This document shows, one piece after another, positions 142 through 18,493 of a DNA stretch of 28,609 nt (positions are counted from its first letter, which is position 1; each line of letters begins with the position of its first letter). Source of the DNA: an uncultured Erysipelotrichaceae bacterium. Lineage in GTDB: Bacteria > Bacillota_I > Bacilli_A > RF39 > UBA660. The stretch is from contig CADBNY010000151.1 of the NCBI GenBank assembly GCA_902796215.1, positions 1 to 28,609 on the forward strand, given 5' to 3'. The position numbers and the translations under genes were made by a program. The notes beneath the pieces were generated by a model. It was not told where the DNA came from. It made no database searches and saw only the letters and a list, made by a program, of their open reading frames with translations.

Positions 142-729
142 ATGAAGAAAAAAAAAGATATTCAATTTATAATAATATTTACATTCATAGTCACAATATC
201 TCTTCTATATTTATCAAAAGTTTCATATGCAAAGTATCGAAAACAAGTAGAAGCAAACACAGCTGCAACTGTAGCTAGTTGGAATATTAAAGTAAATAAT
301 GAATCTATTAATAATAAATCCATTCTTACAAATTATATAACTCCCACTTTTGATACAAATCAATATGTAAAATCTGGAGTTTTAGCACCTGGATCAACTG
401 GATATTTTGATATTGTAATTGATGCTTTATTAGTAGATGTTGATTTTTCCTATGAAATATCAGGAAGTATTCATGAAGATACTCCCTTAAACGATCTAAT
501 TATTACTCAGTACGAACAAAACGGAATTCAATCAATCTATAATGATACTGACAAAATAACTGGAGAAGTTCAAAAAAACACTGCCAACACTTCTATTAGA
601 GTTTTCTTCAAATGGAATGATGATGAAACTGAAACAATGAATAATCAACAAGATACAGCCTATGCTACCAATCCAAATAATCAGCAAACAAAAATAAAAG
701 TCAATATTAAATTCAATCAAAAACAATAA
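142..729 (+). CDS. SipW-class signal peptide protein (pilin/TasA-like fibre subunit candidate), 195 aa
   Basis: Basic N-terminus and hydrophobic helix, then VSYA|KY, then ATVASWNIKVN. The body is beta-rich (LAPGSTGYFDIVID). Paralogous to 750..1499 (ATVASWDVQF) and 7460..8077 (ISPGSSGTIDLEID). RBS aaggtg. Confidence 0.75.
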   Translation: MKKKKDIQFIIIFTFIVTISLLYLSKVSYAKYRKQVEANTAATVASWNIKVNNESINNKSILTNYITPTFDTNQYVKSGVLAPGSTGYFDIVIDALLVDVDFSYEISGSIHEDTPLNDLIITQYEQNGIQSIYNDTDKITGEVQKNTANTSIRVFFKWNDDETETMNNQQDTAYATNPNNQQTKIKVNIKFNQKQ

Positions 730-751
730 GCAAACACTTATTGTTCTTTTT
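719..751. terminator. Bidirectional rho-independent terminator between convergent genes
   Basis: Perfect 9-bp stem AACAATAAG (722-730) / CTTATTGTT (737-745) with a 6-nt loop, and T-rich tracts on both strands. Confidence 0.75.
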
Positions 752-1499
752 ATGTATTTCTTTGTCTCACTAATAATTTAAGTGTTAAAGATAAACAAGC
801 TTTTCCTGTACTTTCTTCATATTCATGACACTTCATTCCAAAATAACTATCGGCATCATCTTTTTCCAGATATAAATTAGACTTTAAACTATTATAAATA
901 CTAGAAGTAACATTAGTTAAAGTATAAATTCCATTACTAAACTGATAATATGGAAAAGAAGAATCAAATTGATAAACATCATCTTGCTTATAATAAATAG
1001 GAGTACTACTTTCATATGGCCAAACCAATCCAATATCAAAATCTACTGTATCAGAAGGATTTAAAACTGATTTACTAGCAGTAAAAGAAACACTAAATGG
1101 ATAATTTGATTGTAAATAATTTATCATAGTTGTCTGATCATTAATTTGAATTGTATGGCCCAATAATTGAAATTCAGAAATTTCATATATAAAATCAGCT
1201 GTAACATCACTATGATTATGAGCAGAAATTGTTTTACTATAATTATTCATTCCCGGCTTCATCTTCGTAATATCAATAACAAAAATTTTAGAATCATCTC
1301 CAGAATCATCTCTAAATTGAACATCCCAAGATGCTACCGTAGCATCCAAACCAACTTGTGCTGTCGTTGAAAAAACAAACCAAGCAAAAATATTAATTCC
1401 CAAAGTAAAAAGTGCTAAAAAGATACTATAATATTTTCTCTTTAACAATGCCTTTTTTAATAAAATAATTTTTTCATCCCTTATTTGTTTCTTCTTCAT
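750..1499 (-). CDS. SipW-class signal peptide protein (fibre subunit candidate), 249 aa
   Basis: Hydrophobic helix then NIFA|WF, a TasA/CalY-like cleavage site, then DATVASWDVQF. C-terminal Cys pair. Lies directly downstream of sipW. Confidence 0.75.
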   Translation of the reverse strand: MKKKQIRDEKIILLKKALLKRKYYSIFLALFTLGINIFAWFVFSTTAQVGLDATVASWDVQFRDDSGDDSKIFVIDITKMKPGMNNYSKTISAHNHSDVTADFIYEISEFQLLGHTIQINDQTTMINYLQSNYPFSVSFTASKSVLNPSDTVDFDIGLVWPYESSTPIYYKQDDVYQFDSSFPYYQFSNGIYTLTNVTSSIYNSLKSNLYLEKDDADSYFGMKCHEYEESTGKACLSLTLKLLVRQRNT

Positions 1500-1513
1500 A
1501 CAAATTCCTATAA

Positions 1514-2101
1514 TTATTCTTGTTCTTCATTCTTTTCTATTCTTCTTATTTCATTCTTTTCTATTTTTATATCTGTAATTGTCTGCAACACTTCTAAAAC
1601 AATGACCAATACTAAAGGAATAAAAATAAGCAAGAAAAAGCCAACTTGACTTTTTACAACATGATTAATTGTTGAAATAATAGGTAAAATTCCTATCACT
1701 TTTCCAAGTATTTGTGCCTCATCAATACTAGGATCTTCCACTTGAGAAGCAACACCCTTTGTCGTATAAATATATTTTCCATCAGATTTTTCTTCCATTT
1801 TTATAATTCTATGTGTAACTAATTTTCCTTGCAAGTCTCCCCTTATTCCCTGATATGCTATATCATCTCCAACCTTTAAACTTTTTGTATCACAATCCTT
1901 TACGATAATAACATCATTAATATCATATACTCCAGCCATTGAACCAGTAGCAACAGTAAATAACCGATATCCAAAAATACTTTTATTACCAGATAAACGT
2001 TGAAGCATAATAAATGATAAGTATAAAACAACCATCAAAATAAAACATATTTTAATTGTCATATAAACATTTCTAAAAATCTTATTATTAAAAATTTTCA
2101 T
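1514..2101 (-). CDS. sipW: Signal peptidase I, SipW/ER-type (S26B), 195 aa
   Basis: N-terminal TM, catalytic Ser box FTVATGSM, GDDIAY, His box VTHRII, KGxxxxxxD, and a C-terminal TM. Confidence 0.92.
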   Translation of the reverse strand: MKIFNNKIFRNVYMTIKICFILMVVLYLSFIMLQRLSGNKSIFGYRLFTVATGSMAGVYDINDVIIVKDCDTKSLKVGDDIAYQGIRGDLQGKLVTHRIIKMEEKSDGKYIYTTKGVASQVEDPSIDEAQILGKVIGILPIISTINHVVKSQVGFFLLIFIPLVLVIVLEVLQTITDIKIEKNEIRRIEKNEEQE

Positions 2102-3212
2102 TATCTAAAACACCCTCTTTAAACAAATCCAATAGTTCATTTATTTTATTATTCTCTCGCATTAAGCGATCTTTAAAAATATTATAAATACTATCTTCTC
2201 TTTCTTTATTCTTAGCTTTAATAGATTTAATTTGTTTATTGAAAATATCTTGTAACTTATCTTCTGTAATATTAGGATCCGTATCTAACAAATTATCTAC
2301 TAAACGCTGTATCATTTGATTAATAACAGAACTTTCATTAGCCCTATCACTGCTATTAATATAATTTTTATTTGCAATAAAAGCCATTAAAAAAGCTTGA
2401 TCGTATTCATTTTTTAAAACACCTTTATCAAAAAAATCACGCTTTTCTTTTTCTTTCTTATCTTTACTTTCAAATGACTGAATATAATTCCATAATTCCT
2501 CAGCTTTCCTAAAATTTGGATTTTTTAAAATAACATTTGTTTTTCGAATAGGACTACGAACAGGAGGAACATGTAATCTTGATAAAGTAAGCATTAACTC
2601 AGTACCAAAAAAACCATCTATTTGCATTTTTGCTTTTTGAATTCTCTCATCAAAAGAAAGATCATTTTTATCGCCACTACCTTCTTGAATTTTTTTAGAA
2701 ACATCACTTAAATCTAAAGAAATTTTTAACTCTTCTCCAAAAACACTTGTATTTGCAACATATTGAAGTTTATTTTTATCTTGACAATATGAAGTTCCAG
2801 AAGTTTCTGAAGTCCTTTTTTCAAAAAAATTACGTAAATTATTTAACAAAGTATGAATAAAACGGTTCTCATATGTATCTAAACTTTCATCTTTATTAAT
2901 ATTTAATATTTTAGACGGTTTAACATCTCCATTATCTTCAATCTTCTGTATTAAATTAGTATGTTGTGTCAAATGAATAACGGATTCTACAGTTACTTTT
3001 CGTGCTAACTCAACTTTAACGATTTCTTCATCATTAATAATAAATCTTTTAGGGTTACGCAAAATATTATCAATATATGGTAAAACATCTTCGATTTTAT
3101 CCAACCATTCATAATTAAACTCTTTTAACTCATAATCTCGCTTAATAAATAATGTAGAATTCAAATTACTAATAAAGGCTTCATTTCTATCAAATTCTTC
3201 ATCATTATTCAT
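2088..3212 (-). CDS. DUF2357-type McrC-like protein lacking the PD-(D/E)xK nuclease domain, ~374 aa (alternative start 3227)
   Basis: DUF2357-like motifs LRNPKRFI, DTYENRFI and TNVILKNPNFRKAEELW. The remaining ~130 aa are helical and charged, with no PD...(D/E)xK. ATG at 3212 has RBS GGAG. The 3' end overlaps the sipW start by 14 bp. Confidence 0.75.
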   Translation of the reverse strand: MNNDEEFDRNEAFISNLNSTLFIKRDYELKEFNYEWLDKIEDVLPYIDNILRNPKRFIINDEEIVKVELARKVTVESVIHLTQHTNLIQKIEDNGDVKPSKILNINKDESLDTYENRFIHTLLNNLRNFFEKRTSETSGTSYCQDKNKLQYVANTSVFGEELKISLDLSDVSKKIQEGSGDKNDLSFDERIQKAKMQIDGFFGTELMLTLSRLHVPPVRSPIRKTNVILKNPNFRKAEELWNYIQSFESKDKKEKEKRDFFDKGVLKNEYDQAFLMAFIANKNYINSSDRANESSVINQMIQRLVDNLLDTDPNITEDKLQDIFNKQIKSIKAKNKEREDSIYNIFKDRLMRENNKINELLDLFKEGVLDNENF

Positions 3213-3226
3213 TCTACCATCTCCCA

Positions 3227-4780
3227 TTAAATCATTTTCTTAAGTCTTAGTAAATACTCCTTACATTCATTAAAGTTTTGCTTTCCAAAGCTCTTATCCA
3301 AAAATTCAATAAATGGATCAATATCATCTCGAATATAAGCTAAGTTTAATTGTTCAAATTTACGAAGTATTTTTCTTGCTATATAATAATCTACACCATC
3401 AACTTCTGTACCACCACACGCAACATATGTTGCAACAAAATCTCTCATTTGCTTAACAATACGATTACCAAAAGCAATACGGAAATGTTGAATAACATAA
3501 TCATCCATATCACTGATTTTTTGTTCCATTTCAGCAGTTAACGGATTATTTTTCTTAGCTTCAGCAAATAACCCTTCTAAATAAGAACTATTAATATTCA
3601 TAGCATCAGTATCAACAGGTTCAAAAACTTGCCCTTTATCATTAATATCAATTGGCATAGCACGGTCATATACTTTATCAGTAACAGCAAAAGTAGAATC
3701 ATCATTATTAATCGTACCAATATACCACATATTACCTGGAATTTTTAATTTACCAGCTTGAAGTTTAACCGGATCATTATCCCAAGAGCTAGGTACTAAT
3801 TCAATAATCCATTCATCTCGTGAAGGCATTTCTAGAATTGACAACATTTCTGCAAAATAGTATTCAACACGAGCAATATTCATTTCATCAAGTACAGTAA
3901 CATAAACATCATCAGTATATCCAGCTAAATACATTCCTTTTAAGACATCAGTTTCATTAAACTTCTTTGTAAACTCATTAAAATAACCAAATAACTCAGT
4001 ACGATCTCTCCAGGAGGGTTGAACAGACGCTATAATTGCATCATTCTTAATAAATTTTCCCCAAGCATAAGCAAGAGAAGTTTTACCTGTACCAGAAATA
4101 CCCTGTAGAATAACTAATTTTGTTGCAGATAATCCAGAAATAAATAATCTTATCATATTAGTTGTATAATAAAGTTTCAATTTAGAAGCCGCAAAATTAC
4201 GAAATTCTTCTACCAATTCTTCTAATGTAAAACTATTTCCATAGTCTTGAATCTTATAATCCTTAAATTGAACATCAATAGAATGTAATTTAGAAAATCT
4301 AGCATTTGGATCATCATCAATAATTCCAACTTCACTACTGTTCTCTTCTTCACTATCACTAATAGTTTCTTCTTCAATTGTAGCCTCTTCCCCTGGTTTT
4401 AATCCTAATTGAGACACTTTCATTGCAAGTATTTTCTCTTTTTCTTGCACCAAATCAGCAACCTTATTATTTAGCATTCCAATCTCTTTTAGCATAGACT
4501 CTTGTTCCACTAGTGTTTTTCGAAATCGAATATATTTACGAACTAAAAAGACAATCGACAAAATAATTAATCCTAATATAACAATCATTACAATAATTGC
4601 TAATATTGCTAATACCCATTCTCCCCCAGAAAACTCCTTTTGATAAAGACCAATAATAGACAAATAATCTTGAATATTAAAAACTTGAATAAAACCATTT
4701 AAAATTCCACTTATCATAGTCCCAATACCATTAAAAAAAACGGACATAAATTCAAATAAAAAACGAAAATAAGTCTCCAT
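3227..4780 (-). CDS. Membrane-anchored McrB-like AAA+ GTPase, ~517 aa
   Basis: Walker A GISGTGKT, Walker B VLDEMNIARVEYYFA, McrB NxxD signature TINNDDST, and KVYDRA. The N-terminus has an amphipathic segment, a TM helix (WVLAILAIIVMIVILGLIILSIVFLV), RKYIRFRK, a coiled coil and an acidic linker. Start corrected to ATG 4780 (RBS GAGGAGG). Confidence 0.85.
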   Translation of the reverse strand: METYFRFLFEFMSVFFNGIGTMISGILNGFIQVFNIQDYLSIIGLYQKEFSGGEWVLAILAIIVMIVILGLIILSIVFLVRKYIRFRKTLVEQESMLKEIGMLNNKVADLVQEKEKILAMKVSQLGLKPGEEATIEEETISDSEEENSSEVGIIDDDPNARFSKLHSIDVQFKDYKIQDYGNSFTLEELVEEFRNFAASKLKLYYTTNMIRLFISGLSATKLVILQGISGTGKTSLAYAWGKFIKNDAIIASVQPSWRDRTELFGYFNEFTKKFNETDVLKGMYLAGYTDDVYVTVLDEMNIARVEYYFAEMLSILEMPSRDEWIIELVPSSWDNDPVKLQAGKLKIPGNMWYIGTINNDDSTFAVTDKVYDRAMPIDINDKGQVFEPVDTDAMNINSSYLEGLFAEAKKNNPLTAEMEQKISDMDDYVIQHFRIAFGNRIVKQMRDFVATYVACGGTEVDGVDYYIARKILRKFEQLNLAYIRDDIDPFIEFLDKSFGKQNFNECKEYLLRLKKMI

Positions 4781-4781
4781 C

Positions 4782-5834
4782 TTAATCCTCCTCAAAAAGC
4801 AATATTTTCAAAGTCTTTCCTTCATAATTAAGTAAATATTCCTTATCTTTATACTTATAATCGGAAAGAACTAAATAATCAAAAATTCCCTCTTTCTCAA
4901 TATTTTCAATCTTTTTATAAATATCATGAATATGAGAAAAATCCTGAATACATACAAAATGAAAATCTTCAGAAAAAGCATCTTTTTGATTCACATAAGT
5001 ATTATAAGTAACACCTAAATAAACATAATGACGAAATAAATGATTATCAATTAAAGAAAAAATATTAGAATCAATTTTTCCTCTTTTAATAAATGAATCA
5101 TCTAATTTAATAATAAAACGAGGGATTTTTTTATTTTCAACAATATTTTTTAAAATATATAAAGACAACTTCTGAATAAGACACTCTATCTTGTCCTTAA
5201 ATAATTCATCCTTAAAAAAAACTCTAGTAATCATCGTCTTCCTATAATTATTTAAGACATCAATATGATAATCAAGCTCAAAATATTTAACCTCATTACA
5301 TCCTTCGAAAGACTTCTCATTAAGACAATAATAATGATCTCGATAATTAAATAACTTATTTATTAAATTATAATTTTTTTGAACCATTTTAATAAACTTT
5401 GCTAATCTATTTTTTATATGTTCTTTATAAAAATAATTATTTTCAACAAATTCAATAACAGCTTCAGATAATTGCTCCTTATCATTTATTTTTAATTGAT
5501 CAATCTTTAAAACTTCTAAAGAAAAATCTTTTAAGCCTTTAATTGCTTGTACATGAAAAGAATATTCTTGATTACTCTCTTGTAATTCATATTGTCGATA
5601 ATCATCCAGCATTTCTATCATTGTCCCTTGAAATTCTTTACAAAGATTATCTAAACTGTAAATAGAATCATCAACCGTATAAAAAATATTATAATAGTAA
5701 TTATCAACATAAAGAGAAAAATAATCTTGAAATACTTTTCGAATAAAAGGTGAATCATCATCTAATAGAAAAACTCCATACTCAACAAGGTATTGTATCT
5801 TATAATTCATAAAAATACTAATTACATTATTCAT
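4782..5834 (-). CDS. Hypothetical protein with a possible degenerate EAL-like C-terminal domain, ~350 aa (alternative GTG start 5846)
   Basis: The order and spacing of RFIIKLDDSF / YVYLGVTYN / FVCIQDFS / IFDYLVLSD resemble EAL motifs ISVNLS / LEITES / IAIDDFG / FDYIKID, with the catalytic residues replaced. The stop lies 1 bp from the next ATG. Confidence 0.45.
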   Translation of the reverse strand: MNNVISIFMNYKIQYLVEYGVFLLDDDSPFIRKVFQDYFSLYVDNYYYNIFYTVDDSIYSLDNLCKEFQGTMIEMLDDYRQYELQESNQEYSFHVQAIKGLKDFSLEVLKIDQLKINDKEQLSEAVIEFVENNYFYKEHIKNRLAKFIKMVQKNYNLINKLFNYRDHYYCLNEKSFEGCNEVKYFELDYHIDVLNNYRKTMITRVFFKDELFKDKIECLIQKLSLYILKNIVENKKIPRFIIKLDDSFIKRGKIDSNIFSLIDNHLFRHYVYLGVTYNTYVNQKDAFSEDFHFVCIQDFSHIHDIYKKIENIEKEGIFDYLVLSDYKYKDKEYLLNYEGKTLKILLFEED

Positions 5835-5861
5835 AGAATTCACCAACCTTACTCAATTAAA

Positions 5862-5870: not shown

Positions 5871-5892
5871 TAAATATCATTCAATTACTCAT

Positions 5893-6825
5893 CTAATTTG
5901 CTGTATTAACAGAAACTTGAATAATTGAAGTTGGATTAACAACCGGATAAGTATAATCCCTAGTAATATCATCTTTATAAAATATTATTTCACTACTAGA
6001 ACTAGCATTAACTTTAAAAGAAAATTTCGAAACATACTGATATCCATTAATTGTTTGTTCTTGATAATTATCAGAAAGACGATGAAGATACAAACTATTC
6101 ATCATATCAACAAATAATTTTTCTGGATTATACTGAAGTGTTACAATAGCAGAAAAACACTTATTTTTATTTTCATCTGTTAAATCATTATAATCATCTA
6201 AACTAATTTGATCACCAACATGATAATTCAAAAAAGGCTCCTCTACCTGATAATAGGAAATAGAATTTAAAAAACGAATTGTTAAATACTTCGAATTAAC
6301 GCTATCTTCTATTTCATAAGAAAAATTGCTTTTTTCAACTCCTATTGTATAAGCAGCACTCATTGTTTTATGATAAGGAAGATTAGAAGAAACAGAAGTT
6401 TCTACTAAAACAGTATCATTTGCATAAAAATTTTGTAATGGTGTAACACTAATTTGATAAGAATCTGTTTCATCATCTGCTCGAATAATTCCACTATTTT
6501 TACTCAAAGTACAACTAACAGTACTAGGACAATTAACATTAATGGTATAACTAATATCTGTTCTAGTAACTCTTTCAGCATTTTTACGATTATTTAAATC
6601 AATTGTTAATGTATAAGTATTAACACCATCCCAGTTATTTATATTATAATTTTTGCCATTAACATTTAAAATACTACTATTAAAATAAAAACCCTTAGTT
6701 TCTAATAAATATTGTGAAATAATATTATGAATATAACGACCAAAAGCAAAAGAAATAAATAAGAAAAACACTAATAAACATAAAATAATAATACTTCTTC
6801 TTTTATATTTTCGAATATATTTCAT
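5893..6825 (-). CDS. SipW-class signal peptide protein (fibre subunit or minor component), 310 aa
   Basis: Basic N-terminus, hydrophobic helix, FAFG|RY, then a beta-rich body with Cys residues. No C-terminal anchor. Confidence 0.7.
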   Translation of the reverse strand: MKYIRKYKRRSIIILCLLVFFLFISFAFGRYIHNIISQYLLETKGFYFNSSILNVNGKNYNINNWDGVNTYTLTIDLNNRKNAERVTRTDISYTINVNCPSTVSCTLSKNSGIIRADDETDSYQISVTPLQNFYANDTVLVETSVSSNLPYHKTMSAAYTIGVEKSNFSYEIEDSVNSKYLTIRFLNSISYYQVEEPFLNYHVGDQISLDDYNDLTDENKNKCFSAIVTLQYNPEKLFVDMMNSLYLHRLSDNYQEQTINGYQYVSKFSFKVNASSSSEIIFYKDDITRDYTYPVVNPTSIIQVSVNTAN

Positions 6826-6839
6826 AGTACCCTCCTATA

Positions 6840-7451
6840 TCATATAATTTGTTGAGACTCCAATATAACTTCAATACTTTCTAAATAATCCGCATAAACA
6901 CTGTTTGCAGAATAAAGAGAGGGAAATTGTATAACTATTGTATAAATATCTGTTACATCATTTTCATAACTCATTTGATAATTACTAATGGCACTATACT
7001 CTCTATACCACGCCCCATCTACATCTTGTTTTGAACTAGATCCTTGAAAAAGATTAACTGCCCCACTAGCATCTGGTAATTCATTACAATACATTGAAAT
7101 AGTAATTGGTAAATTGGTCGTTGTTCGAACCTTAACTCGATAAGAAATATCCACATCACTGTGTTTACTAGCATTATAATTAGATACACTAAAACGATAT
7201 ACATAAGCCTCATCTTGAGGAATGATTCCTTCTGATTCTAAATTAAAAGACATTTTCCCATCTTCAAAAATATATAAGGCTTTATCAATATTAGCATTAA
7301 CTTTAGCACGTATTTCATATCTTGAATAAGTATATTGTAATAATCGAAATGCTAAAAATAAAATCAACAACAAAAAGAATCCGAATAATATTAATCTTTT
7401 TTTTTCCTCAAAAAAAGATATATTCTTAATTTTATTAATTAATAAATTCAC
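6840..7451 (-). CDS. SipW-class signal peptide protein (fibre subunit candidate), 203 aa, GTG start
   Basis: Hydrophobic helix then YTYS|RY. Beta-rich body (IIPQDEAYVYRFSVSN...DVDISY). RBS AGGTG. Confidence 0.72.
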   Translation of the reverse strand: MNLLINKIKNISFFEEKKRLILFGFFLLLILFLAFRLLQYTYSRYEIRAKVNANIDKALYIFEDGKMSFNLESEGIIPQDEAYVYRFSVSNYNASKHSDVDISYRVKVRTTTNLPITISMYCNELPDASGAVNLFQGSSSKQDVDGAWYREYSAISNYQMSYENDVTDIYTIVIQFPSLYSANSVYADYLESIEVILESQQII

Positions 7452-7459: not shown

Positions 7460-8077
7460 CTACGGTTCTACATATTCTTGAATAGTCTCTCCTCGATATT
7501 GAACAGCATGAAAATGAATTTCAAAAAAATCATCTAATATTTGATTATCTTCTGTTATCCCTTCAATATCAACTAAATAATCAAAATAAAAATTAGCACT
7601 AAGATGAAATTTTCTATTATTTGCTATATCATCTAAAGTTATAATTCCAGTATAAGTATCTTGACTTGTTCGAATAATTCCATCATTTGAAATTATCTCA
7701 GAAAAAGTCAAAAGTTTATCATCATCTATTTTTTTATCAACAAAACGAAATTCATATAATATAGCAACATCACTACCACTAGGATCAATTTCCAAATCAA
7801 TTGTACCAGAACTACCTGGAGATATTTTTTCTTCTCGAGTATGAGTAGATACCCAAGTTGTATTATCTAAAATAACTCGATTATCTAACGTACCATCATT
7901 ATTAGCAACCGCATCTACTCCATTTATTTTCAAACTTATTCCAGCAATTGAATTTGTTACTGCACCTTCAATAATAGACTCATAAGCAGTATAAGTAAAT
8001 CTAGCATTATAATACAAAAAACAGCCACCTACAATAACAATTAAAAAAAACATCAATATCTTTTTATTGTTTCTCAT
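7460..8077 (-). CDS. SipW-class signal peptide protein (fibre subunit candidate), 205 aa
   Basis: Hydrophobic helix then FTYT|AY. The ISPGSSGTIDLEID motif is shared with 142..729. Confidence 0.72.
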   Translation of the reverse strand: MRNNKKILMFFLIVIVGGCFLYYNARFTYTAYESIIEGAVTNSIAGISLKINGVDAVANNDGTLDNRVILDNTTWVSTHTREEKISPGSSGTIDLEIDPSGSDVAILYEFRFVDKKIDDDKLLTFSEIISNDGIIRTSQDTYTGIITLDDIANNRKFHLSANFYFDYLVDIEGITEDNQILDDFFEIHFHAVQYRGETIQEYVEP

Positions 8078-8912: not shown

Positions 8913-11900
8913 CTACGATGTTTTTTTATGAATAATAATATACTTTGTTTCACTATCAATTAATTGATTATTATCATATAATTTAAAGACTATTCGATAA
9001 GTTCCACTCGTTAAAGATGTCTGTAAATTAAAGTCCAAATTCCTTTCTGTTAAACCGTTCATATCTAGATACATTTCATTTCCACTAGCAGGAATAAAAG
9101 CATTACTAAATACAGACCTAAATGGTATTGAAGTAAATTGAGTAGAATCAATAGAATCAATATCGCGTTTAAATAATTCTACTCTAAGATTTGGATTAGT
9201 AAGTTGGGAATTATACTTAATATGATAAGTATTAGTAGTTCTACCATTCATATTTTTCCCTGTTTCTCCATCAATAATCTTATCCTTATCATCACCATCT
9301 ACAATAATAGAATTATCAGCACTTACAACATAAACAGTAAATTCTTGAGTAATAGAATTTTCATAAATAGAATTATGCAAGCCATCATCAGAAGCAAATA
9401 ATGTATATCGAATTTTATATTCGCCTGGAGGTAAATCTTTTGTAACAGTAATTTTCGGTAACTTATCCAAATTAGATACTTTATTTGCTAACTTAATTCT
9501 AAAAATTCCATCCCCATCAGCAAAATATTCATGATTATCTAACATGATACTAGTACCAGTTAACATACTAGAACTAACAGAAACTCCCTCTTTATCAAAT
9601 AACGAAACATTAAGCCCCATACTACTTGATTCATAATTAGTATCAATTACAGATTGTCTATTTTCTGTTTCATTATATTGAATTCTAGTAGAATAATTAA
9701 ATTCATCAGCTACATTGTAATATAAATAAGAATCATTATTGGCAAAAGTCTGATTTAAGACAATATTACTGCTATCATAAGTATTATAAACCATTAAAGA
9801 TTCTCGAATACCTAAAACATTAAAAACAGTACGATCTTCATGATTACGAAGTTCAAATAACATAGAATTACCTAAATGTTCACCAGTAGTACCTGTTTCT
9901 TTAAAATCAAAAATAAACATAAATTCTTCATCAACTAAACCAACCTCATCATCATAATAAGCATGATTAGCTACCCTATCATCGTAAGTATTATTATTAC
10001 TAGTACTGCCCATTTTAATAAAATTATGAAGTGGATAAACAATTTCATTATATAAAGATAATTGCTCTAAAGAATCATTGTATATATCTTGAGTTACCGT
10101 AAAATAGTAATAATCTGGTCGATTAGGATTTGCTCCATAATCAAGCATAGTAATCATTGTATTAACTGGTAATGGATGATTCGTAGTTAAAACATGATAA
10201 TTTTGATTATTATTTCCATATACACTTTCAAATCTATCATTCCAAGCAGTTAATGAATAATATGTACTAAATTGACTCTGATTTGTAATATTAACTAAAG
10301 TTGATGAAGGCATTTCATACCTTTTATCATATGTGATAGAAGCATCATAACTATCTGCATCATCATATTTTCTAGAAACTAAATTAATAGTAACCGTAAT
10401 AAATTTAATATCATATTCAATAGCATTCTTAGGAATATCCGCCCTTAAAGTTAAAACTACAGTACCAAGTCTTCCCTGGCTATTAATATTTTTAGCATGA
10501 TACAAGTAAAACATCAAAGATGGAGGAAGTTTTCTACTATCTGTTTTATAATTCTTATCACCTGTCAAAGCTCCCCCATTTTGACTCAATAATTTAGTCA
10601 CACCATAACCGGTCCATTCTTGCGTTTCAGCCTTCATTGAAAGACCTAAAATATTATTTGCTTGTTCTTCTGTTCGACCAACCCTAGGAACATTATTCGA
10701 ATCCACTAATTGAATTTCACTATTTAATCCACTACTATCAAATCCAATAGCACTAAAGTTTGTATTACCATCAGCAAAATCAATCAATTGCAATTCATAA
10801 GTACCTAAAGAAGAATACTTAGAAGCAGTCAAAGTAAATTCATAATTAATAGCTTCAAAACCAATAATCCAACGATAACCAGTTTCACCAATTGGACTAG
10901 GATCAATATAAGCAACCTTAACTTCTGTATAATCATCATTTAAATAATTTGAATAAAAACCATCTTTTGTAATATCATGATCAACATTATGAAGACCAAT
11001 AACATAACTACCTCCAACAATTTCTAATCCAGCATTACCAGTATCACCATAACTTAAATCATCATCATATAAACCATAACGATAAGTACCATTATCATAA
11101 CCAGTATACATTCCAAAGAAAGTCATACCAGTTACTCTACCATAAGCAGTAGCAGCTTGATTAATTGTAACATTCAAATTTTGACCAGGTAGCATATAAA
11201 TCCGATTATCAACGTTTTTAGTAACACTTCCACTATCATCATCAATATCAACAATCGCTGGTACTAATGTACCATTAGAGTCAACTCCACTATATAATTC
11301 TTTTAATAAATTTGCATTATGTTGAAGTAATAAAACACTATCATTTTTCAATATTAATTTATCAATAATATTAAATGAATATAAAATATCAGAATACTCA
11401 TTTGTTCTATCCGTTGTACCTTCAAGCTCAATAACAGAATGATCAATAATCAAATTATTAGCTCTTTGAATAGAAATGCTTTTATTAGGAGCTTCTCTAG
11501 AACCTAAATTTTTAATAGTAATATTAGAAGTTCCTGAAGAACTAGAAGCATTTCCAGAACCAAAAACACTACCATTTATAATAAAATCATGATTATTATT
11601 TATATATCCTGTACCATTAATATCAACATCAATTCCTCGGGTAACGGAGATAAATGTCCAGTCATAAGTCTCACTACCACTAGCATTACTCTCTCCTCCA
11701 CCAAAAACTGTTCCACTAATATGAATATCATCTTCATGAAGTCCATTGACAGATACAGAACTAGTACCAATGTTAGTATCAGTTGTTCCATAAACAATAG
11801 CCATTTTAGGTCCGCCATAAACATTTCCATGAATAATTCCTCCTACAAGATTAACAGTAGCAATAGAATTACCCACACTTTGAAGTCCAGTACTTGCAGC

Positions 11901-14900
11901 ATTCCCGGAACCAAACACACACCCTGCATTAGGAGCTTCACTAGAAGATGTTCCAATTTCTGATTCACCATCAATAGTAATTGTTGAATTTGTATGAACT
12001 ATCGCAGTACTACCATTACCTCCCGCAAAAGCATTACCTAAAATATGCGCATCAGTTACAAAAACACTAGTACTACCTTCAACAACTCCTTCACATCCAC
12101 CACCATAAATATTATTAGAAACAGTAGAACCATCAATATCTAAAATAGTATTACCCGTAACACCAGCAGCATTACCACCACCATAGATATCAACAGCTGT
12201 AATAGAACCAACTATTACATTCGAAGAGCCAACACTAGCCTCGTTTCCTCCACCATAAATAGTGTGAACATCACCTTCATTTGCCGTAACATTAGCAACA
12301 CTTGTAATACCTCCATGATTATTTCCCCCATAAACAGTTTGAACTCTAATATTAGAGTTTGGAATATTATTACCTAACTGAACATTAGATGTTCCAACAT
12401 TACCAGATTCGTTAGAACCTCCAAATAAATTTGTAATTGTACCACTTTCAACTAATACATTTGTATTTGTAACTCCGGCTTCATTCCCTCCGCCATAAAC
12501 ATTTGTTATATTACCACTATGAATATTAACTTGACTTATTAAAGAAGAAGCATTGTCTCCTCCACCAAACAAATTCGTAATAGAAGAAGATGTAGTATCA
12601 ATATTAGCATTAGTCGTTTGTCCACCTTGATTATTCCCACCATATGCACTTGTTATAATAGAATTGACAATATAAACATTACCTGTACCTACAGTTCCAG
12701 AAACATTAGAACCACCAAAGACAGAGTGAAGAGTATCATTTTGAATACTTATATTAGTAGCCGTAAGACCAGCTTTTCGTCCTCCACCATAAACATCTTG
12801 TAAAGAATCAATATACCCAGAAACAGTAACATTACTAGTACCAGAAGAAGCTTCATTTCCTCCACCATAAATATCCCCACTAATATCGGCCCCAACAATT
12901 GAAACATTAGTAATACCTGTCGAACCATCTATATTATTACCACCATAAATATCTGTGACAGAACCGCTAGTTACTGTAACATGAGACTCTGTAACTGTTC
13001 CTAATAAATTAGAGCCACCATATAAATTGCCCGTAATAGTAGAACCCTGTAAATAAATATTAGTGCTATCTTGATTAACTTCATTTCCTCCACCAAAGGC
13101 ATTACCAATCGAGCCAGCGTTTAAATAAACAACATCTCCACTACTAGGCTTTCCAGAGGCATCAAAACCACCAAAAACTTTACCAATAGAGCCACCATTA
13201 ATATTAACAGTAATATTTCCCAATACATAAGGAGTAGCAGAATCACTTCCTTGAGCTCCACCAAATACACTGCCATGAATAATACCATTAGAAACAGTAA
13301 CATTAGTATTTCCACTAGCTGTTCCACTTATTGATGTTGCATTAACAGTTCCATAAGCACTACCACCATAAACAGAACCATTTATTACAGGATGATTAGA
13401 TACAGTATTACCAATAGACACATTAATATTTGAATTAACAAATGTATTATTTCCTCGTCCACCACCATAAACATTATGTGTAATATTTCCATCATAAACA
13501 TTTACATTTACTGAACCATAGACAAGTCCTTCATTATCAGAACCACCATATATATTTCCGATTGTTCCGCCATATATATTAATATTAATAGCACTAGATG
13601 AAGAATAATTAGATTGACCAAATCCAGCTGATTTAGAACCACCATATATATTTCCGATTGTTCCATCTAAAACGTCAATGCTAGAAGAGGATGTATTAGC
13701 ATATTGTGTACCAGCAGAGCCATAATTACCTCCCCCATAAACACTCTTATTAATCGTTGCTCCATTAACAATAATACGTGAATTATAAACAGTTCCTTTA
13801 GATGTAGAACTAGTATTACCTCCACCAGCTCCAAAAACAGAACCAGATTCTACTCCATACAAAGAATCTATCTCATCACCAATAACTGCATCTCCACCAA
13901 TATAAATAAGAGTAGAACCTTGGACAATTCCATCAGTAGTATCGGAAGAACTATAACTATCAGAACCACCAAGAACACTATAATGAACTTTACCACCTGT
14001 AACATTTATAATACGGTTCCCTTGCGTAGTAGAATGACCAGCTCCTCCATATATTTGCCGAACCTCTCCTCCAGACATTCCAATAAAAGAAGAATTAGAA
14101 TTCACTCCACCATTAAAACCATAGCCACCTAAAGCAATATTAATATATCCACCTTCAATTTTTACACCTGTAATGGATTCTACATTTTTTGCATTCCATC
14201 CACCAATATATAAGCCGGTAGTACCATCAGTATTAGCAGTACCATTTGTATTAAAACCATAAGTACCACTTTTCAAAGTTGTAAAAGATAAAAACAAACT
14301 ATTACTTCCTGCTATATTAGAACCACTATTGGAATAACCATCAAGACCAATTAAAAACCATAAATTATCATTATTATTATTAATTCGATCATAATCATTA
14401 CCTAATATATTTTCCTCATTGAAAGTTGATGTATAACTTCCACTATCTGCACCACAACGATATGAATAATATCTTCCAGTTTCAATAATAACCTTAAAAG
14501 AACCACTAGCACCATTAGTAACGCCACCATAAATTCGATTTGCTATCAAATAATTATTACCTCTACTGCTAGTTACATTTCGCCCAATTTTGAAATTATT
14601 AGAATTTGCATAAATTGCATAAGTTGTTGGTTCATCACCCATAGAATAATTATTTGAACCAGTACCACTAGGACCATAAAATTTAATATTTTCAATAACC
14701 AAGTCATTTCGAACAGTCAAGTTATTTGCAACATTAAGAATTCCTGTAGGATTAGTTGCATTAATATCCGTACCCGTTACAGTAAAAGGTCTATTCACTG
14801 AAATATTAGAAATAGTTAAAGCTGTAGTACTAGTATATCTAAAAATATTAGTATCCCTAGTAACTAAATAAAAATATTTATTAGAATCAACAATTTCTCC

Positions 14901-17240
14901 ATTATATTCTTCAACTATTGATATCGAATTACCTCGTGAATTTAAAATTGAATCATTATACCTAATCATTTTATAGGCTGTAGTACAATCACTAGCATTA
15001 GTACATAAAGTACCATCACCAGTATAATATTCTTTAGTACTAATCATATCAATAGTTGGATTACTTACTTGATAAAATAAGCCTACTGTACTTTGTCCAG
15101 CTAATAAAGTAGTTGTATAATGTGGAATTTGTACAGTATCCCAATAACTACCATTAGAATCAGCAATAAGATTCATATAATTAGAACTGTAATAATATAT
15201 TGTTGTCTCTGTATTATCCCCTGTCGAATCAAAATCCGGTATAAATGTATAATTACCACCAGTATATTCAGTACCACCAACAATACCACTTGTATTTGCT
15301 CTATATGCATAACAAGTACTATATCTAGGGCATCTTGTCCTAGTACCACCAACATAAGTATAAGTAGTGCCAGACTGATTTGTCTTATACCAAATTCCTT
15401 GTGGCATATACCCATCATTCCGCACATAAGAACGAGTATATTCCATTATTGCATAATTCTGTTTCCAATAAGCTCTTCCTTGTATATTTTCCTGTGTATA
15501 ATGAGAAAATGTACTCATAGATTGCATGGACATAGAATTAAAATCACTAATATCACTAGCACTAGTCACAACATCAGCTTTAATCCAACTAGCATTTAAA
15601 TGAACAATAATCTGACTTCCACCATCCACAGGAATATCCATATATCTGGTATAATTATTCTTTTGAAATCCAATTATTGAACTCTCACATATAGAATCAC
15701 TAGAATCACTATTTTGATTGCACACCCATCCATTAAATCCATATTCAGAATTATTAATGTAAGGTCTCTTAGAAAAAGGATTATCAATAAGTTCAATATG
15801 AATATAATGATTACCATTATTATCAGTTAATAAATTACCATTAGAATCTCTCTCTAATCCATAATATTTATAATAAACAAACTTATTAATAGCGTTTTCC
15901 CCATTTATAGGAGACATAAATCCTACTAAAGAACTATTATTAATATCAACACCATCATAAATCATTTGTACTTTTACCAAATATTGATCATCATAATATC
16001 CAGAATTAGTACTAGGTAAAGAAGTATTTTGAACCTCTGTATAATTTAAACCCTTTAAATAATTATAATCACTATCAAGATCATTAACATAAAAAGTATT
16101 TCCTGATAAACCAGATTCATGAGTAATAATATTACTAGCACCCCTAGTTTTAATAGAAAAAGAAAAATTACTAGGTTTATTATCAATAATATTACTTGTT
16201 TTTATTTCTTCTTGCTTAACATATTTTTTCAAAACAAATTGATTTTCTTCATAATCCCAATAATAATCACTACTATTATCATTAAATTCAGAAAGTAACA
16301 TTTCATTAGAAATTTCCTCTCCATCTAAATATATTTTTCCATCTTTCACAATATAATGATTTTTAATTTTCTCATTAGAAAAATTAATATCATTCATATT
16401 TTCCAATGAAATATTACTAATAACTTTATATACTTCTCCATCTATATTATCCGATATAATACCAATTTTATTATTATTATCATTTCCTCTAATTCTTCCT
16501 ATAAAGGATAAATTATACAAATAACTATTAGAAGAAACACTTTTAGTAAATACACCAATATAATTATCACTACTTTTTATATCAGCATAATCAATGTCAA
16601 AATCAATAAATGATAAATTTACAAATTGGCTTAATACAGTTTCTTCATTTATATTCTCATCTTTACTGTTTGTTAAAACTTCTCCAATAAATCCTACAAT
16701 ATTATTATATTCATGCTCATTTTCATTTACTTTTATTTTAAAAGACCTCATTATAAGATTTTCAATACTAGCATTTTCAACTTTAGTAAATAAAGAATAA
16801 TATGAAACATTATCTACAACAACATCTTGATCTATTTTTAAATTATAAATAGAATGTCCCCTACCATCAAAATGTCCTTTAAATATTTTATCCTCTTCCG
16901 AAGTAATAATACCAATACTAGAAAAGCTCTTATCTCCAAAATTTAAATCACCATCTAAAGCATAATATTTATCTTGATAAGATTGATAATTATCTCCTTC
17001 TATTAAATTTTTAAAATAAACAAATTCCTCTGGACTTCTAATAATATATGGATTTTCACTTGTTCCATTTCCAGATTCAAATTGAGTTGCTACTGAAACT
17101 CCATCCCATGGTTGCTCCAACGAACCAAAAGTAAGTTTACCCGTTAAAAGTAAATAAATAAAAAAAGAAAAAGAAAGCACAATAAAAGCAATGAAAAAAG
17201 AAATAAAGGTTTTTTTATAAATTTCATTTCTTATTTTCAC
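8913..17240 (-). CDS. Giant surface protein / adhesin, ~2,775 aa: N-terminal TM or SipW-class signal, GLUG-like region, (Y/F)GG beta-solenoid repeats, C-terminal Ig-like domains
   Basis: Start probably GTG 17240 (RBS GGTGG; the ORF track starts at 17249). LTFG|SL follows the TM. GNGTSENPYII and FKGHFDGRGHSIYNL are GLUG-type adhesin motifs. There are about 30 xx(Y/F)GG repeats. C-terminal LPPGEYKIRY and LTSGTYRIVF. No LPxTG or C-terminal TM. Confidence 0.8.
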   Translation of the reverse strand: MKIRNEIYKKTFISFFIAFIVLSFSFFIYLLLTGKLTFGSLEQPWDGVSVATQFESGNGTSENPYIIRSPEEFVYFKNLIEGDNYQSYQDKYYALDGDLNFGDKSFSSIGIITSEEDKIFKGHFDGRGHSIYNLKIDQDVVVDNVSYYSLFTKVENASIENLIMRSFKIKVNENEHEYNNIVGFIGEVLTNSKDENINEETVLSQFVNLSFIDFDIDYADIKSSDNYIGVFTKSVSSNSYLYNLSFIGRIRGNDNNNKIGIISDNIDGEVYKVISNISLENMNDINFSNEKIKNHYIVKDGKIYLDGEEISNEMLLSEFNDNSSDYYWDYEENQFVLKKYVKQEEIKTSNIIDNKPSNFSFSIKTRGASNIITHESGLSGNTFYVNDLDSDYNYLKGLNYTEVQNTSLPSTNSGYYDDQYLVKVQMIYDGVDINNSSLVGFMSPINGENAINKFVYYKYYGLERDSNGNLLTDNNGNHYIHIELIDNPFSKRPYINNSEYGFNGWVCNQNSDSSDSICESSIIGFQKNNYTRYMDIPVDGGSQIIVHLNASWIKADVVTSASDISDFNSMSMQSMSTFSHYTQENIQGRAYWKQNYAIMEYTRSYVRNDGYMPQGIWYKTNQSGTTYTYVGGTRTRCPRYSTCYAYRANTSGIVGGTEYTGGNYTFIPDFDSTGDNTETTIYYYSSNYMNLIADSNGSYWDTVQIPHYTTTLLAGQSTVGLFYQVSNPTIDMISTKEYYTGDGTLCTNASDCTTAYKMIRYNDSILNSRGNSISIVEEYNGEIVDSNKYFYLVTRDTNIFRYTSTTALTISNISVNRPFTVTGTDINATNPTGILNVANNLTVRNDLVIENIKFYGPSGTGSNNYSMGDEPTTYAIYANSNNFKIGRNVTSSRGNNYLIANRIYGGVTNGASGSFKVIIETGRYYSYRCGADSGSYTSTFNEENILGNDYDRINNNNDNLWFLIGLDGYSNSGSNIAGSNSLFLSFTTLKSGTYGFNTNGTANTDGTTGLYIGGWNAKNVESITGVKIEGGYINIALGGYGFNGGVNSNSSFIGMSGGEVRQIYGGAGHSTTQGNRIINVTGGKVHYSVLGGSDSYSSSDTTDGIVQGSTLIYIGGDAVIGDEIDSLYGVESGSVFGAGGGNTSSTSKGTVYNSRIIVNGATINKSVYGGGNYGSAGTQYANTSSSSIDVLDGTIGNIYGGSKSAGFGQSNYSSSSAININIYGGTIGNIYGGSDNEGLVYGSVNVNVYDGNITHNVYGGGRGNNTFVNSNINVSIGNTVSNHPVINGSVYGGSAYGTVNATSISGTASGNTNVTVSNGIIHGSVFGGAQGSDSATPYVLGNITVNINGGSIGKVFGGFDASGKPSSGDVVYLNAGSIGNAFGGGNEVNQDSTNIYLQGSTITGNLYGGSNLLGTVTESHVTVTSGSVTDIYGGNNIDGSTGITNVSIVGADISGDIYGGGNEASSGTSNVTVSGYIDSLQDVYGGGRKAGLTATNISIQNDTLHSVFGGSNVSGTVGTGNVYIVNSIITSAYGGNNQGGQTTNANIDTTSSSITNLFGGGDNASSLISQVNIHSGNITNVYGGGNEAGVTNTNVLVESGTITNLFGGSNESGNVGTSNVQLGNNIPNSNIRVQTVYGGNNHGGITSVANVTANEGDVHTIYGGGNEASVGSSNVIVGSITAVDIYGGGNAAGVTGNTILDIDGSTVSNNIYGGGCEGVVEGSTSVFVTDAHILGNAFAGGNGSTAIVHTNSTITIDGESEIGTSSSEAPNAGCVFGSGNAASTGLQSVGNSIATVNLVGGIIHGNVYGGPKMAIVYGTTDTNIGTSSVSVNGLHEDDIHISGTVFGGGESNASGSETYDWTFISVTRGIDVDINGTGYINNNHDFIINGSVFGSGNASSSSGTSNITIKNLGSREAPNKSISIQRANNLIIDHSVIELEGTTDRTNEYSDILYSFNIIDKLILKNDSVLLLQHNANLLKELYSGVDSNGTLVPAIVDIDDDSGSVTKNVDNRIYMLPGQNLNVTINQAATAYGRVTGMTFFGMYTGYDNGTYRYGLYDDDLSYGDTGNAGLEIVGGSYVIGLHNVDHDITKDGFYSNYLNDDYTEVKVAYIDPSPIGETGYRWIIGFEAINYEFTLTASKYSSLGTYELQLIDFADGNTNFSAIGFDSSGLNSEIQLVDSNNVPRVGRTEEQANNILGLSMKAETQEWTGYGVTKLLSQNGGALTGDKNYKTDSRKLPPSLMFYLYHAKNINSQGRLGTVVLTLRADIPKNAIEYDIKFITVTINLVSRKYDDADSYDASITYDKRYEMPSSTLVNITNQSQFSTYYSLTAWNDRFESVYGNNNQNYHVLTTNHPLPVNTMITMLDYGANPNRPDYYYFTVTQDIYNDSLEQLSLYNEIVYPLHNFIKMGSTSNNNTYDDRVANHAYYDDEVGLVDEEFMFIFDFKETGTTGEHLGNSMLFELRNHEDRTVFNVLGIRESLMVYNTYDSSNIVLNQTFANNDSYLYYNVADEFNYSTRIQYNETENRQSVIDTNYESSSMGLNVSLFDKEGVSVSSSMLTGTSIMLDNHEYFADGDGIFRIKLANKVSNLDKLPKITVTKDLPPGEYKIRYTLFASDDGLHNSIYENSITQEFTVYVVSADNSIIVDGDDKDKIIDGETGKNMNGRTTNTYHIKYNSQLTNPNLRVELFKRDIDSIDSTQFTSIPFRSVFSNAFIPASGNEMYLDMNGLTERNLDFNLQTSLTSGTYRIVFKLYDNNQLIDSETKYIIIHKKTS
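11550..14540 (-). repeat. About 30 degenerate protein repeats of roughly 25-30 aa, consensus I.xx(V/I)(Y/F)GG(G/S)N.x.V.G.T.V.I.xG
   Basis: Read from the translation: NIYGGSK, NIYGGSD, NVYGGGR, SVYGGSA, SVFGGAQ, NAFGGGN, DIYGGNN, NLFGGGD, TIYGGGN and others. Confidence 0.9.
13539..13664. repeat. Exact 30-bp direct repeat pair within the adhesin gene
   Basis: agaaccaccatatatatttccgattgttcc at 13539-13568 and 13635-13664, encoding GTIGNIYGGS twice. Confidence 0.9.
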
Positions 17241-17254
17241 TGCTACCACCCACT

Positions 17255-18493
17255 TTAATAATTATGTATTTTTACAATACGTTCAATTTTATCTAATTCA
17301 AATACTTTCTTATTATCAAACTTATTTGATATTTTTTGCATAAAAGTAATTTGATTTTTTATCTGTTTGATAGCATATTTATCAGAAGTAGATATTTTTT
17401 TAAAATAATTACCTTGATCTACCAACACTTTATATTTTAATATTTTATAAATACCATCAAACATTTCTTGATCATTATAAAGAATAGAATACGTTAATAA
17501 TTGTAAAAAGATATAAACAGGCATATGATATATACGATTACGTACAATTTCTGTCAATCCAACTCTTTCTAAATCATAATCATATAATTCTTGAAATGGT
17601 GGATTATTTATTTCTTCAACAAAATATTTAGTATCTGAAACAAGTAAAATATTACAAAGTTTATAGATATATTGATATTTTTGTAACCATTTTTTAGTCA
17701 TTCTAATTTTAAAAACTTGAGCTTTTTTACATTTTAAAATTGAAGTAACTATATCAATTGTTTCCTTCTCTTTAAGATGATCATTACCTGATACATTTTC
17801 ATGAAGTGAAGATTCAATATCATCTAAAATCTCTATATCAGATGTTTTTTCTAATTCTTTCTCATGATTTTTTTCTAAAGTTTCAATTTCTTGTAATGGA
17901 ATTGTTACTGTTAAACCAGATGGTGCTTCCTCTTTTCGATTACTAGGTGATAAGAATATATCATCAGGTACTTTCTTTTGCTCATCCTTTTCTGTTTTTT
18001 TCGTATCTTTTTCCTTCATAATAAACTTACGAACAATACCATCAAAATTAACTAACGCTAAAAGAATAAAAATAATTAAGAAAACAGCAATAGATTTCAA
18101 AATAAAACTTGGAGAAATAGAGCAACAAACCCTACCTATTATTTGATCTTTCGATATTGCCTCATCTACTGAATTATTTACATCACCTTTAGCAATATAA
18201 TCTTCATTATTGATTTGAATTAAACGATGGGTAATAATTTCTCCATCCTTACTCTTATAAGTAATAATATCATTTAAATGAACATCTTTTGTTAATCGAA
18301 TAAAAATAATATCATCAACTTCTATACTACCTGACATAGAACCAGATGCCACTACAAAATAAGTATGTCCAAAAATATTAACATAATCTTTTTTCATAAT
18401 ATCCGTAACAATAAAGGTATATATACATAAAGTCACTAAAAGAACCAAAAAAATAGATGCAACATATTTAAATATGTTCTTAACTTTAGTCAT
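17255..18493 (-). CDS. sipW: SipW-type signal peptidase I with a ~260-aa C-terminal cytoplasmic extension, 412 aa
   Basis: VVASGSMS, DIITY, ITHRLI and KGDVNNSVD are intact. A second TM is followed by a charged/acidic linker and an unrecognised helical domain. Confidence 0.85.
   Translation of the reverse strand: MTKVKNIFKYVASIFLVLLVTLCIYTFIVTDIMKKDYVNIFGHTYFVVASGSMSGSIEVDDIIFIRLTKDVHLNDIITYKSKDGEIITHRLIQINNEDYIAKGDVNNSVDEAISKDQIIGRVCCSISPSFILKSIAVFLIIFILLALVNFDGIVRKFIMKEKDTKKTEKDEQKKVPDDIFLSPSNRKEEAPSGLTVTIPLQEIETLEKNHEKELEKTSDIEILDDIESSLHENVSGNDHLKEKETIDIVTSILKCKKAQVFKIRMTKKWLQKYQYIYKLCNILLVSDTKYFVEEINNPPFQELYDYDLERVGLTEIVRNRIYHMPVYIFLQLLTYSILYNDQEMFDGIYKILKYKVLVDQGNYFKKISTSDKYAIKQIKNQITFMQKISNKFDNKKVFELDKIERIVKIHNY

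Follow-up and report, generated by a model that had tools for sequence, protein, structure and literature searches.

A complete CoCoPALM locus encoding predicted SipW-type peptidases, TasA-like exported proteins and an McrB-family GTPase in an uncultured gut bacterium

Introduction

TasA-type fibres are thought to assemble without a source of energy. Donor-strand insertion between subunits has been observed in TasA, in which residues 28-38 constitute the new N-terminus and form the donor strand (PMC9674648), and has been modelled for BsaA of Clostridium perfringens (PMC11580942), whose oligomers are reported to be membrane-anchored and sortase-independent (PMC7395162, PMC11580942). In this study, we analysed a stretch of 28,609 nucleotides (hereafter the window) from an uncultured Erysipelotrichaceae bacterium (assembly GCA_902796215.1, contig CADBNY010000151.1), which carries a twelve-gene locus (genes A to L) encoding signal peptidases of the SipW type, exported proteins with a predicted TasA-like fold, and an McrB-family GTPase with its partner proteins.

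Bell et al. (eLife 2024; PMC11090510) state that the McrB family mostly serves in restriction, and recognise a large NxD-type clade of McrB GTPases that carry, as a fusion, an FtsB-like segment with transmembrane and coiled-coil parts. A single paragraph there names the system CoCoPALM and defers its analysis to a future paper; no later paper using this name was found in a literature search. Judged by its gene content, the locus is a complete CoCoPALM member, i.e. one of a kind that has been named and is experimentally uncharacterised: it encodes an NxD-type McrB-like GTPase (E), an adjacent DUF2357 protein (D) and members of the signal peptidase family (three paralogues in the window). Beyond what that paragraph describes, it presents a family of putative substrates with a predicted TasA-like fold and a common motif, a giant beta-solenoid protein (K) and a conserved dead peptidase (J), as well as an EAL-fold protein (F) together with its fusion to SipW in sister loci, and the apparent absence of a nuclease from D.

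We consider it probable that this cassette produces a sortase-independent fibre in which TasA-like subunits cut by SipW-type peptidases are joined through donor strands and capped by the adhesin K, with E, D and F exerting control from inside the cell. A more specific scheme, in which a hexamer of the McrB-derived GTPase and its McrC N-terminal activator would act through the EAL-fold adaptor F to time SipW cutting and the hand-off to the fibre, with the dead peptidase as anchor, is put forward only tentatively.

Results

Organisation of the locus

The window is contig C151 of a metagenome-assembled genome (MAG) of 1.14 Mb that is 80% complete and has a G+C content of ~26%. Twelve open reading frames (ORFs) were verified at the coordinates given below, making up a 12-gene cassette of ~18 kb. 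Eleven of the genes form a head-to-tail series on the minus strand (18493 to 750), and A (142-729, plus strand) converges on them; F overlaps E, and E abuts D. In the following list, a slash within a motif marks the presumed cleavage point.

A, 142..729, plus strand: 195 amino acids (aa), predicted TasA-like beta-sandwich subunit, signal-anchor ending in SYA/KY; sole plus-strand gene, convergent with B
B, 750..1499, minus strand: 249 aa, paralogue of the A family, signal-anchor ending in IFA/WF
C, 1514..2101, minus strand: 195 aa, SipW/Sec11-type signal peptidase with intact catalytic residues
D, 2088..3227, minus strand: 379 aa, McrC N-terminal-domain (DUF2357) protein, cytoplasmic, no recognisable nuclease
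E, 3227..4795, minus strand: 522 aa, McrB-family NxD-type GTPase with an N-terminal membrane-anchoring region
F, 4782..5846, minus strand: 354 aa, cytoplasmic, helical domain (8-166) and degenerate EAL-fold domain (169-354)
G, 5893..6825, minus strand: 310 aa, exported, signal-anchor ending in AFG/RY
H, 6840..7451, minus strand: 203 aa, paralogue, signal-anchor ending in TYS/RY
I, 7460..8077, minus strand: 205 aa, close paralogue of A, signal-anchor ending in TYT/AY
J, 8204..8848, minus strand: 214 aa, pseudo-peptidase of SipW fold, two transmembrane segments
K, 8913..17249, minus strand: 2778 aa, exported giant protein, signal-anchor ending in TFG/SL
L, 17255..18493, minus strand: 412 aa, SipW/Sec11-type peptidase, catalytically intact; first gene of the operon
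Upstream boundary, 18494..18600, minus strand: terminator-like hairpin (18600-18572) of a type VII secretion system (T7SS) unit, followed by a promoter-like site and a ribosome-binding site

The small exported proteins and their common motif

Comparison of sequence profiles indicated that A, B, G, H and I are members of one paralogous family. A was aligned by hhalign with I (99.6%, E 1.2e-23; blastp 6e-6), H (92.4%, E 5e-7) and B (89.5%, E 1.9e-6), and H in turn with B (93.9%, E 1.6e-7) and I (95.4%, E 2e-8), while the N-terminal domain of G proved to be related to H (93.2%, E 3e-7 over 135 columns). These are the five small secreted proteins that a first-pass annotation of the window had termed pilins, and both blastp and the hhalign profile comparison bear out their paralogy. 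Homologues of A are numerous: at E<=1e-3, they amount to 2480 cluster representatives (clustering at 50% identity). Orthologues of B, in which the residues AWF are invariant, were present in 16 of the 21 compared loci (20 fetched loci and L016), and those of G retain its motif and carry an invariant FYFxS just past it. Being monocistronic and more widespread than the other subunits, A is a candidate major subunit and would be the likely shaft of the fibre.

The same annotation had also claimed that six secreted proteins share a motif at the end of a hydrophobic helix, and all six motifs were indeed read in the translations (VSYA/KY in A, NIFA/WF in B, FAFG/RY in G, YTYS/RY in H, FTYT/AY in I and LTFG/SL in K), in each case following the only N-terminal hydrophobic segment of the protein. 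The common pattern is [ST]-[YF]-[AGST]-x-[YF], of which B and K display looser variants. Among homologues of A (n=48), neither K31 nor Y32 varies, and >=90% retain Y29 and A30. Across 20 related genomes, orthologues of each of the six proteins (25-60% identity) retain the pattern although the flanking residues drift, and in a more distant subtype it takes the form TYAWF, TYSMF or TYSKY. Genome-wide, only 9 of 1031 ORFs of >=100 aa have an N-terminal hydrophobic segment that terminates in the strict pattern, and four of the nine belong to the locus. Conservation and enrichment of the motif, as read from these sequences, exceed what would be expected by chance, because it is kept in divergent orthologues and is rare genome-wide. 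By eye it resembles the SipW-class site of TasA, as had been proposed, the donor strand of TasA being residues 28-38 (PMC9674648). Genes beyond A in the related loci lack the motif.

Neither an LPxTG sequence at the C-terminus nor a C-terminal hydrophobic anchor was detected in any of the twelve proteins, and no sortase is encoded in the window, in agreement with the first-pass annotation; six sortase-domain matches are located on other contigs of the genome. Elsewhere in this genome, classical SipW-type motifs (TSTYAWF and GTYAIY) that follow a hydrophobic helix at the N-terminus occur in two further ORFs (G000:C18:2071-3078 and G000:C9:9678-10220).

The AlphaFold2 model of A (pLDDT 90.1) comprises a helix (residues 2-29), an unstructured stretch (~30-46) and a beta-sandwich (47-195). 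Its best match in the PDB, as identified by Foldseek, was the TasA fibre 8aur (E 1.3e-4), followed by chaperone-usher pilins and an archaeal bundling pilus. Among AFDB clusters, camelysin, spore coat-associated protein N, SipW-cognate signal peptide and alternate signal-mediated exported protein were matched at ~1e-4, and the best named ESM Atlas cluster was camelysin/PF12389 (TM-score 0.60 over 165 residues); a feature search of the Atlas with I likewise gave a lead to a PF12389-bearing cluster. In the VIA alignment with TasA 8aur, the first paired residues are 42 of the A model and 39 of the TasA chain, so that the N-terminal extension of A would be equivalent in position to the donor strand of TasA. 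The model thus combines the jelly-roll/beta-sandwich and the TasA-like N-terminal extension by which the fold of the PF12389 family is recognised. The predicted fold of A is TasA/camelysin-like, and a fold alone is no proof of a fibre. When mature A (residues 31-195) was predicted as a homotrimer, the score was 0.38, the mark being 0.42 and the controls lying at 0.00; this value is taken neither for nor against a polymer.

At the level of sequence, no Pfam or NCBIfam model matched the five small proteins, and the A-family profile had no match among PDB sequences, so that no sequence bridge to TasA was obtained. The only sequence-level TasA signal near any compared locus is a 377-aa protein situated 3.5 kb from the D-E pair of L026 (L026:8311-9444; NCBIfam TasA match 7e-6, TIGR04088 18.2 bits), which lies out of range of the hidden Markov models (HMMs) built from A, B, G, H and I.

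Two intact peptidases and a conserved dead paralogue

The SipW/Sec11-type model TIGR02228 (cut-off 51.85) was matched by C with 67.2 bits and by L with 56.8 bits. C contains a GSM Ser box, a THR His box and two transmembrane segments, and its Ser and His are kept in orthologues. L carries the motifs SGSM, THR and KGDxNxxxD, which are conserved in orthologues, and has transmembrane segments at 4-34 and 122-159 in addition to a cytoplasmic tail of ~250 aa that is unrelated to F by hhalign and gave no lead in the Atlas. J matched the SipW model at E 0.002 only, and is a remote paralogue of C (blastp 2.5e-7); the Ser and His boxes are absent from J of the window and from 16 of 16 orthologues, while J retains both transmembrane segments (3-33 and 135-169). 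C and L are thus predicted to be catalytically intact SipW/Sec11-type peptidases, and J is their conserved dead paralogue. The three peptidase paralogues claimed at first pass are all of the SipW/Sec11 type, but only two are intact since J has lost the catalytic Ser and His. A LepB-type signal peptidase I is encoded elsewhere in the same genome (155.5 bits), indicating that C and L are extra, dedicated peptidases.

Two further SipW-type genes were found in the genome, namely G000:C131:2072-2554 (L001) and G000:C52:7964-8362 (L002). One adjoins two N-terminally anchored proteins of ~195 aa, and in the other the peptidase domain forms the C-terminal part of a polytopic membrane protein of 372 aa, the neighbouring gene encoding a secreted protein of 165 aa.

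The cytoplasmic module D, E and F

The first-pass annotation had viewed the locus as an elaborate tapA-sipW-tasA operon, a view that holds for the SipW-type peptidases and the TasA-like subunits but that omitted D, E and F (2088-5846), although these form a conserved core. E was matched by McrB, both in the PDB (6hz4, E 2.8e-5) and in NCBIfam (2.7e-6), and its Walker A (GISGTGKT), Walker B (LDEMN) and GTINND sequences are invariant in 22 sequences; one orthologue carries glutamate in place of the second D of the signature, leaving N-x-D as its constant part. The DNA-binding N-terminus that is usual in this family is replaced by a hydrophobic segment (54-91) and a charged helical linker, and residues 69-121 gave a weak match to the FtsL model (E 0.026). 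E also matched the PADLOC model PDC-M26A (3.4e-34), the match spanning only the AAA core (residues 206-328). D was assigned to PF09823 (E 4.5e-11) and had no match among PDB sequences; in an alignment of 22 sequences, it displayed no conserved PD-(D/E)xK or D...(D/E)xK motif, and conservation was poor in its C-terminal third.

The gene found immediately upstream of E in six loci specifies a fusion of 649-736 aa with an N-terminal SipW-type peptidase and a cytoplasmic C-terminus homologous to F; F and the fusion tail were aligned by hhalign at 99.2% (E 9e-20, 283 columns). This fusion is the strongest evidence on hand and, as a gene-level link, suggests a joint function of the peptidases and the cytoplasmic module. 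In loci L027-L032 (e.g. L029:12339-14510), the fusion consists of a SipW peptidase, a transmembrane segment and an F-like domain, and these loci additionally encode paralogues (359-433 aa) that bear the TYAWF motif, as well as a K-like protein shorter than K (~1200 aa). The genome that contains the window has a single GGDEF-domain gene (G000:C96:805-1236, 74.9 bits) and, in its 80%-complete assembly, no canonical EAL domain, so that F may be its only EAL-like protein.

The giant protein K

K is predicted to be a beta-solenoid protein and a giant adhesin. Its signal-anchor is followed by a conserved start, WDG...G.GT..PY.I, and residues ~900-1850 contain ~24 xYGG rungs at a spacing of ~25 aa. 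Orthologues range from 2626 to 3057 aa, and from ~1080 to 1225 aa in the distant subtype. No Pfam or NCBIfam model matched K, and comparison by hhalign detected no domain related to the small proteins.

Conservation and distribution

The gene order A-B-C-D-E-F-G-H-I-J-K recurs in an NCBI MAG (~50% identity) and in L017-L020, and the interleaved arrangement is kept across genera at 30-80% identity. In each of the 21 loci compared, D is the immediate neighbour of E; 16 of these loci also contain SipW-type genes. Because the gene order is syntenic in relatives and SipW-F fusions exist, D, E and F are, on these comparisons, integral to the locus and not an inserted island. The GTPase E was identified in 63 of 199 sampled genomes and in 41 of 98 genera of the family, some genomes having two copies, and in gut and rumen MAGs it had >471 matches. 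The hosts are uncultured gut/rumen Bacilli MAGs labelled Bacilli, Mycoplasmatota or Erysipelotrichaceae (e.g. "Mycoplasma sp. CAG:877"), and DNA of the locus occurs in cattle-gut metagenomes from ~10 studies; the public runs listed as containing it include no RNA run.

In L033-L036 (e.g. L033:879-5954), an F'-E-D module is accompanied by a cytoplasmic protein of 421-558 aa, with no SipW gene or motif protein nearby. The module of L033 lies beside conjugation-like ATPase genes, and L033-L036 may represent a different functional subtype.

Boundaries and neighbouring genes

L is preceded by an extended -10-like sequence (TGTTATAAT) and a ribosome-binding site, from which a putative promoter was read, and a terminator scan identified the hairpin at 18600-18572 as the end of the preceding T7SS unit. 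No riboswitch, for cyclic di-GMP or otherwise, was detected by Rfam in the window, whether at gathering or E<=1 thresholds, nor was any detected in 14 related loci.

The compact T7SS unit (18707-25729) encodes EssC (TIGR03928, 923 bits), a possible YukD-like protein and six small WXG100-like proteins; EssA, EssB and EsaA were not recognised in the window. The T7SS was considered as a part of the system and rejected, EssC not being syntenic with the cassette in five relatives, which makes its adjacency incidental. Beyond this unit lies a gene (25902-26546) whose product, a polytopic membrane protein of small size, contains the motif GGIFGW(I/L)YE, and a similar gene (L024:11886-12452) lies 2.5 kb from the CoCoPALM genes of L024. 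On account of the latter, the T7SS operon may have inserted between the CoCoPALM genes and the GGIFGW(I/L)YE gene in the present genome.

Discussion

The proposed fibre would be assembled as follows. Subunits would be exported by Sec and held at the membrane by their signal-anchors until cleavage by C and/or L, directly behind the small motif residue, exposed a new N-terminus. By analogy with TasA and BsaA, this N-terminus would insert as a donor strand into the sheet of the next subunit, yielding a surface fibre. K would cap one end as an adhesin, most simply at the distal tip, because it has a donor end but no detectable acceptor domain. The dead peptidase J could retain one subunit in uncut form, which would provide a membrane anchor or a platform for assembly, and a GTPase hexamer with D and F beneath the membrane might gate or drive cleavage and assembly by way of the peptidase tails. 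Of the sortase-independent, multi-subunit pilus envisaged in the first-pass annotation, the TasA-like fold, the N-terminal extension, the five paralogues and the absence of sortase signals find support in our results; polymerisation and the position of K at the tip are what we infer.

Several observations weigh against such a fibre or against its internal control. Peptidase_M73 (PF12389) was matched by none of A, B, G, H and I at E<=0.1, nor by any other protein genome-wide, and ten remote relatives of A were equally devoid of PF12389. TIGR04088, a signal model of 34 positions, gave no match at E<=10 with the full proteins or with their N-terminal 60-70 residues; the search of window proteins with the TIGR04088 and camelysin HMMs, which had been suggested as a check of the pilus, therefore came out negative, in spite of the model being functional, as the L026 protein described above scored 18.2 bits (cut-off 19). 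For K and G, no acceptor domain was detected, or the relation to the A family is only partial. With respect to the cytoplasmic module, a crude test of heptad periodicity gave values for E, D, F and L that did not exceed shuffled controls and hence did not confirm coiled coils, and the EAL-fold domain of F lacks conserved catalytic or ligand residues, which sets it apart from EAL (PF00563). Furthermore, 4 to 5 of the 20 fetched loci contain a D-E(-F') module without any peptidase, so that this module can work elsewhere.

As the main alternative, the locus might instead serve the regulated release of a membrane-tethered adhesin complex, in the manner of LapD-LapG-LapA, with release proteases of the SipW type set through F and the GTPase and with J as a protective decoy. 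Such an arrangement, which we regard as unlikely, would account for the fusion of an F domain, via a transmembrane segment, to an extracellular SipW domain in sister loci, for a giant adhesin without a wall anchor, for the conservation of a dead peptidase and for the one GGDEF gene in the genome. However, the presence of five TasA-like paralogues whose N-terminal extensions are conserved is more readily reconciled with a heteropolymer than with a simple tether. F is devoid of conserved ligand-binding residues, and a cyclic di-GMP riboswitch was absent from the window and the 14 related loci. LapG, moreover, is a protease of a family unrelated to SipW.

A role in conflict or defence, in which a membrane-sited McrBC-derived GTPase would be coupled to surface proteins that sense or block phages or competitors, appears improbable to us. 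It draws on the membership of E in a family that mostly serves in restriction (PMC11090510), on the PADLOC candidate PDC-M26A matched by E (3.4e-34), on the patchy distribution of the system (63/199 genomes, some with two copies) and on the D-E-F' modules that lack peptidases, one of them beside conjugation-like genes. The PADLOC match is, however, confined to the AAA core of E (206-328); D, F and the peptidases had no convincing match, and the only other one was that of L to VakA (E 0.0021). D lacks a nuclease and no other effector was recognised, which makes a defence role less likely, and the bulk of the 18 kb encodes exported structural proteins.

That the genes are chance neighbours, be it a TasA-type operon interrupted by an unrelated McrBC-like island or one partnered with the adjacent type VII secretion operon, is scarcely credible, for although D, E and F lack signal peptides amid genes for exported proteins and the EssC operon is the immediate upstream neighbour, the interleaving of the genes is maintained in different genera (30-80% identity), F and SipW are fused in six loci, EssC is found on other contigs or hundreds of kb away in five relatives, and a terminator and a promoter-like site separate the T7SS unit from the cassette.

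Should the proposed fibre and its control from within prove correct, the locus would be the first donor-strand pilus of monoderm bacteria that is coupled to nucleoside triphosphates and controlled inside-out. It would also represent a non-defence use of the McrBC machine, i.e. a defence motor taken over for cell-surface biology. The link between peptidase and GTPase that is seen in fused genes suggests a new form of cytoplasmic control over extracellular assembly. The cassette takes up ~1.5% of the genome in hosts with genomes of ~1 Mb, and is likely to be central to their attachment to surfaces, hosts or partner cells. Being complete, the locus is a good template for heterologous reconstitution.

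Comparison with known systems

The degenerate EAL receptors of LapD-LapG-LapA and FimX (3pjt, 6pwk, 4f48) recall F, but the proteases belong to unrelated families (SipW here, LapG there), the host here is monoderm, the locus contains neither a GGDEF nor a HAMP domain, and the ligand residues of F are not conserved. With the McrBC type IV restriction enzyme (6hz4, 6ut6), the locus shares the GTPase core and the DUF2357 activator partner; unlike that enzyme, E has a membrane anchor in place of the DNA-reading domain and D has no conserved PD-(D/E)xK, so that it does not qualify as a restriction system. Nor does it resemble a sortase-dependent Gram-positive pilus, which is defined by LPxTG on its subunits and a pilus sortase in the locus, both being absent here. 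Archaeal AbpA bundling pili and CanA cannulae (7ueg, 7uii), which are donor-strand fibres of related jelly-roll fold, are among the structural matches of A.

Closer likenesses are found among the SipW operons. The sipW-bsaA-bsaB-bsaC operon of C. perfringens (PMC7395162, PMC11580942) similarly combines SipW, several TasA-like paralogues and a large accessory protein, but an McrBC-like module is absent from it; its BsaA oligomers are locked by isopeptide bonds and its BsaC has a vWA domain, neither of which was seen in the present locus. The tapA-sipW-tasA operon of Bacillus subtilis (8aur; PMC9674648, PMC10151520) has in common with the present locus a dedicated SipW-type peptidase beside its substrates, a beta-sandwich subunit, a motif of the order aromatic-small-any-aromatic, and the lack of a sortase signal. 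In contrast to the Bacillus operon, with one such subunit and TapA, the locus described here encodes five subunit paralogues, three peptidase paralogues, an adhesin of 2778 aa and a cytoplasmic GTPase module that Bacillus lacks, and its proteins do not match Peptidase_M73 or TIGR04088. Of the FtsB-like transmembrane and coiled-coil N-terminus of CoCoPALM GTPases, E displays a hydrophobic segment and a weak FtsL match. It is CoCoPALM that the locus resembles in its NxD GTPase, in the adjoining DUF2357 protein and in its signal-peptidase genes.

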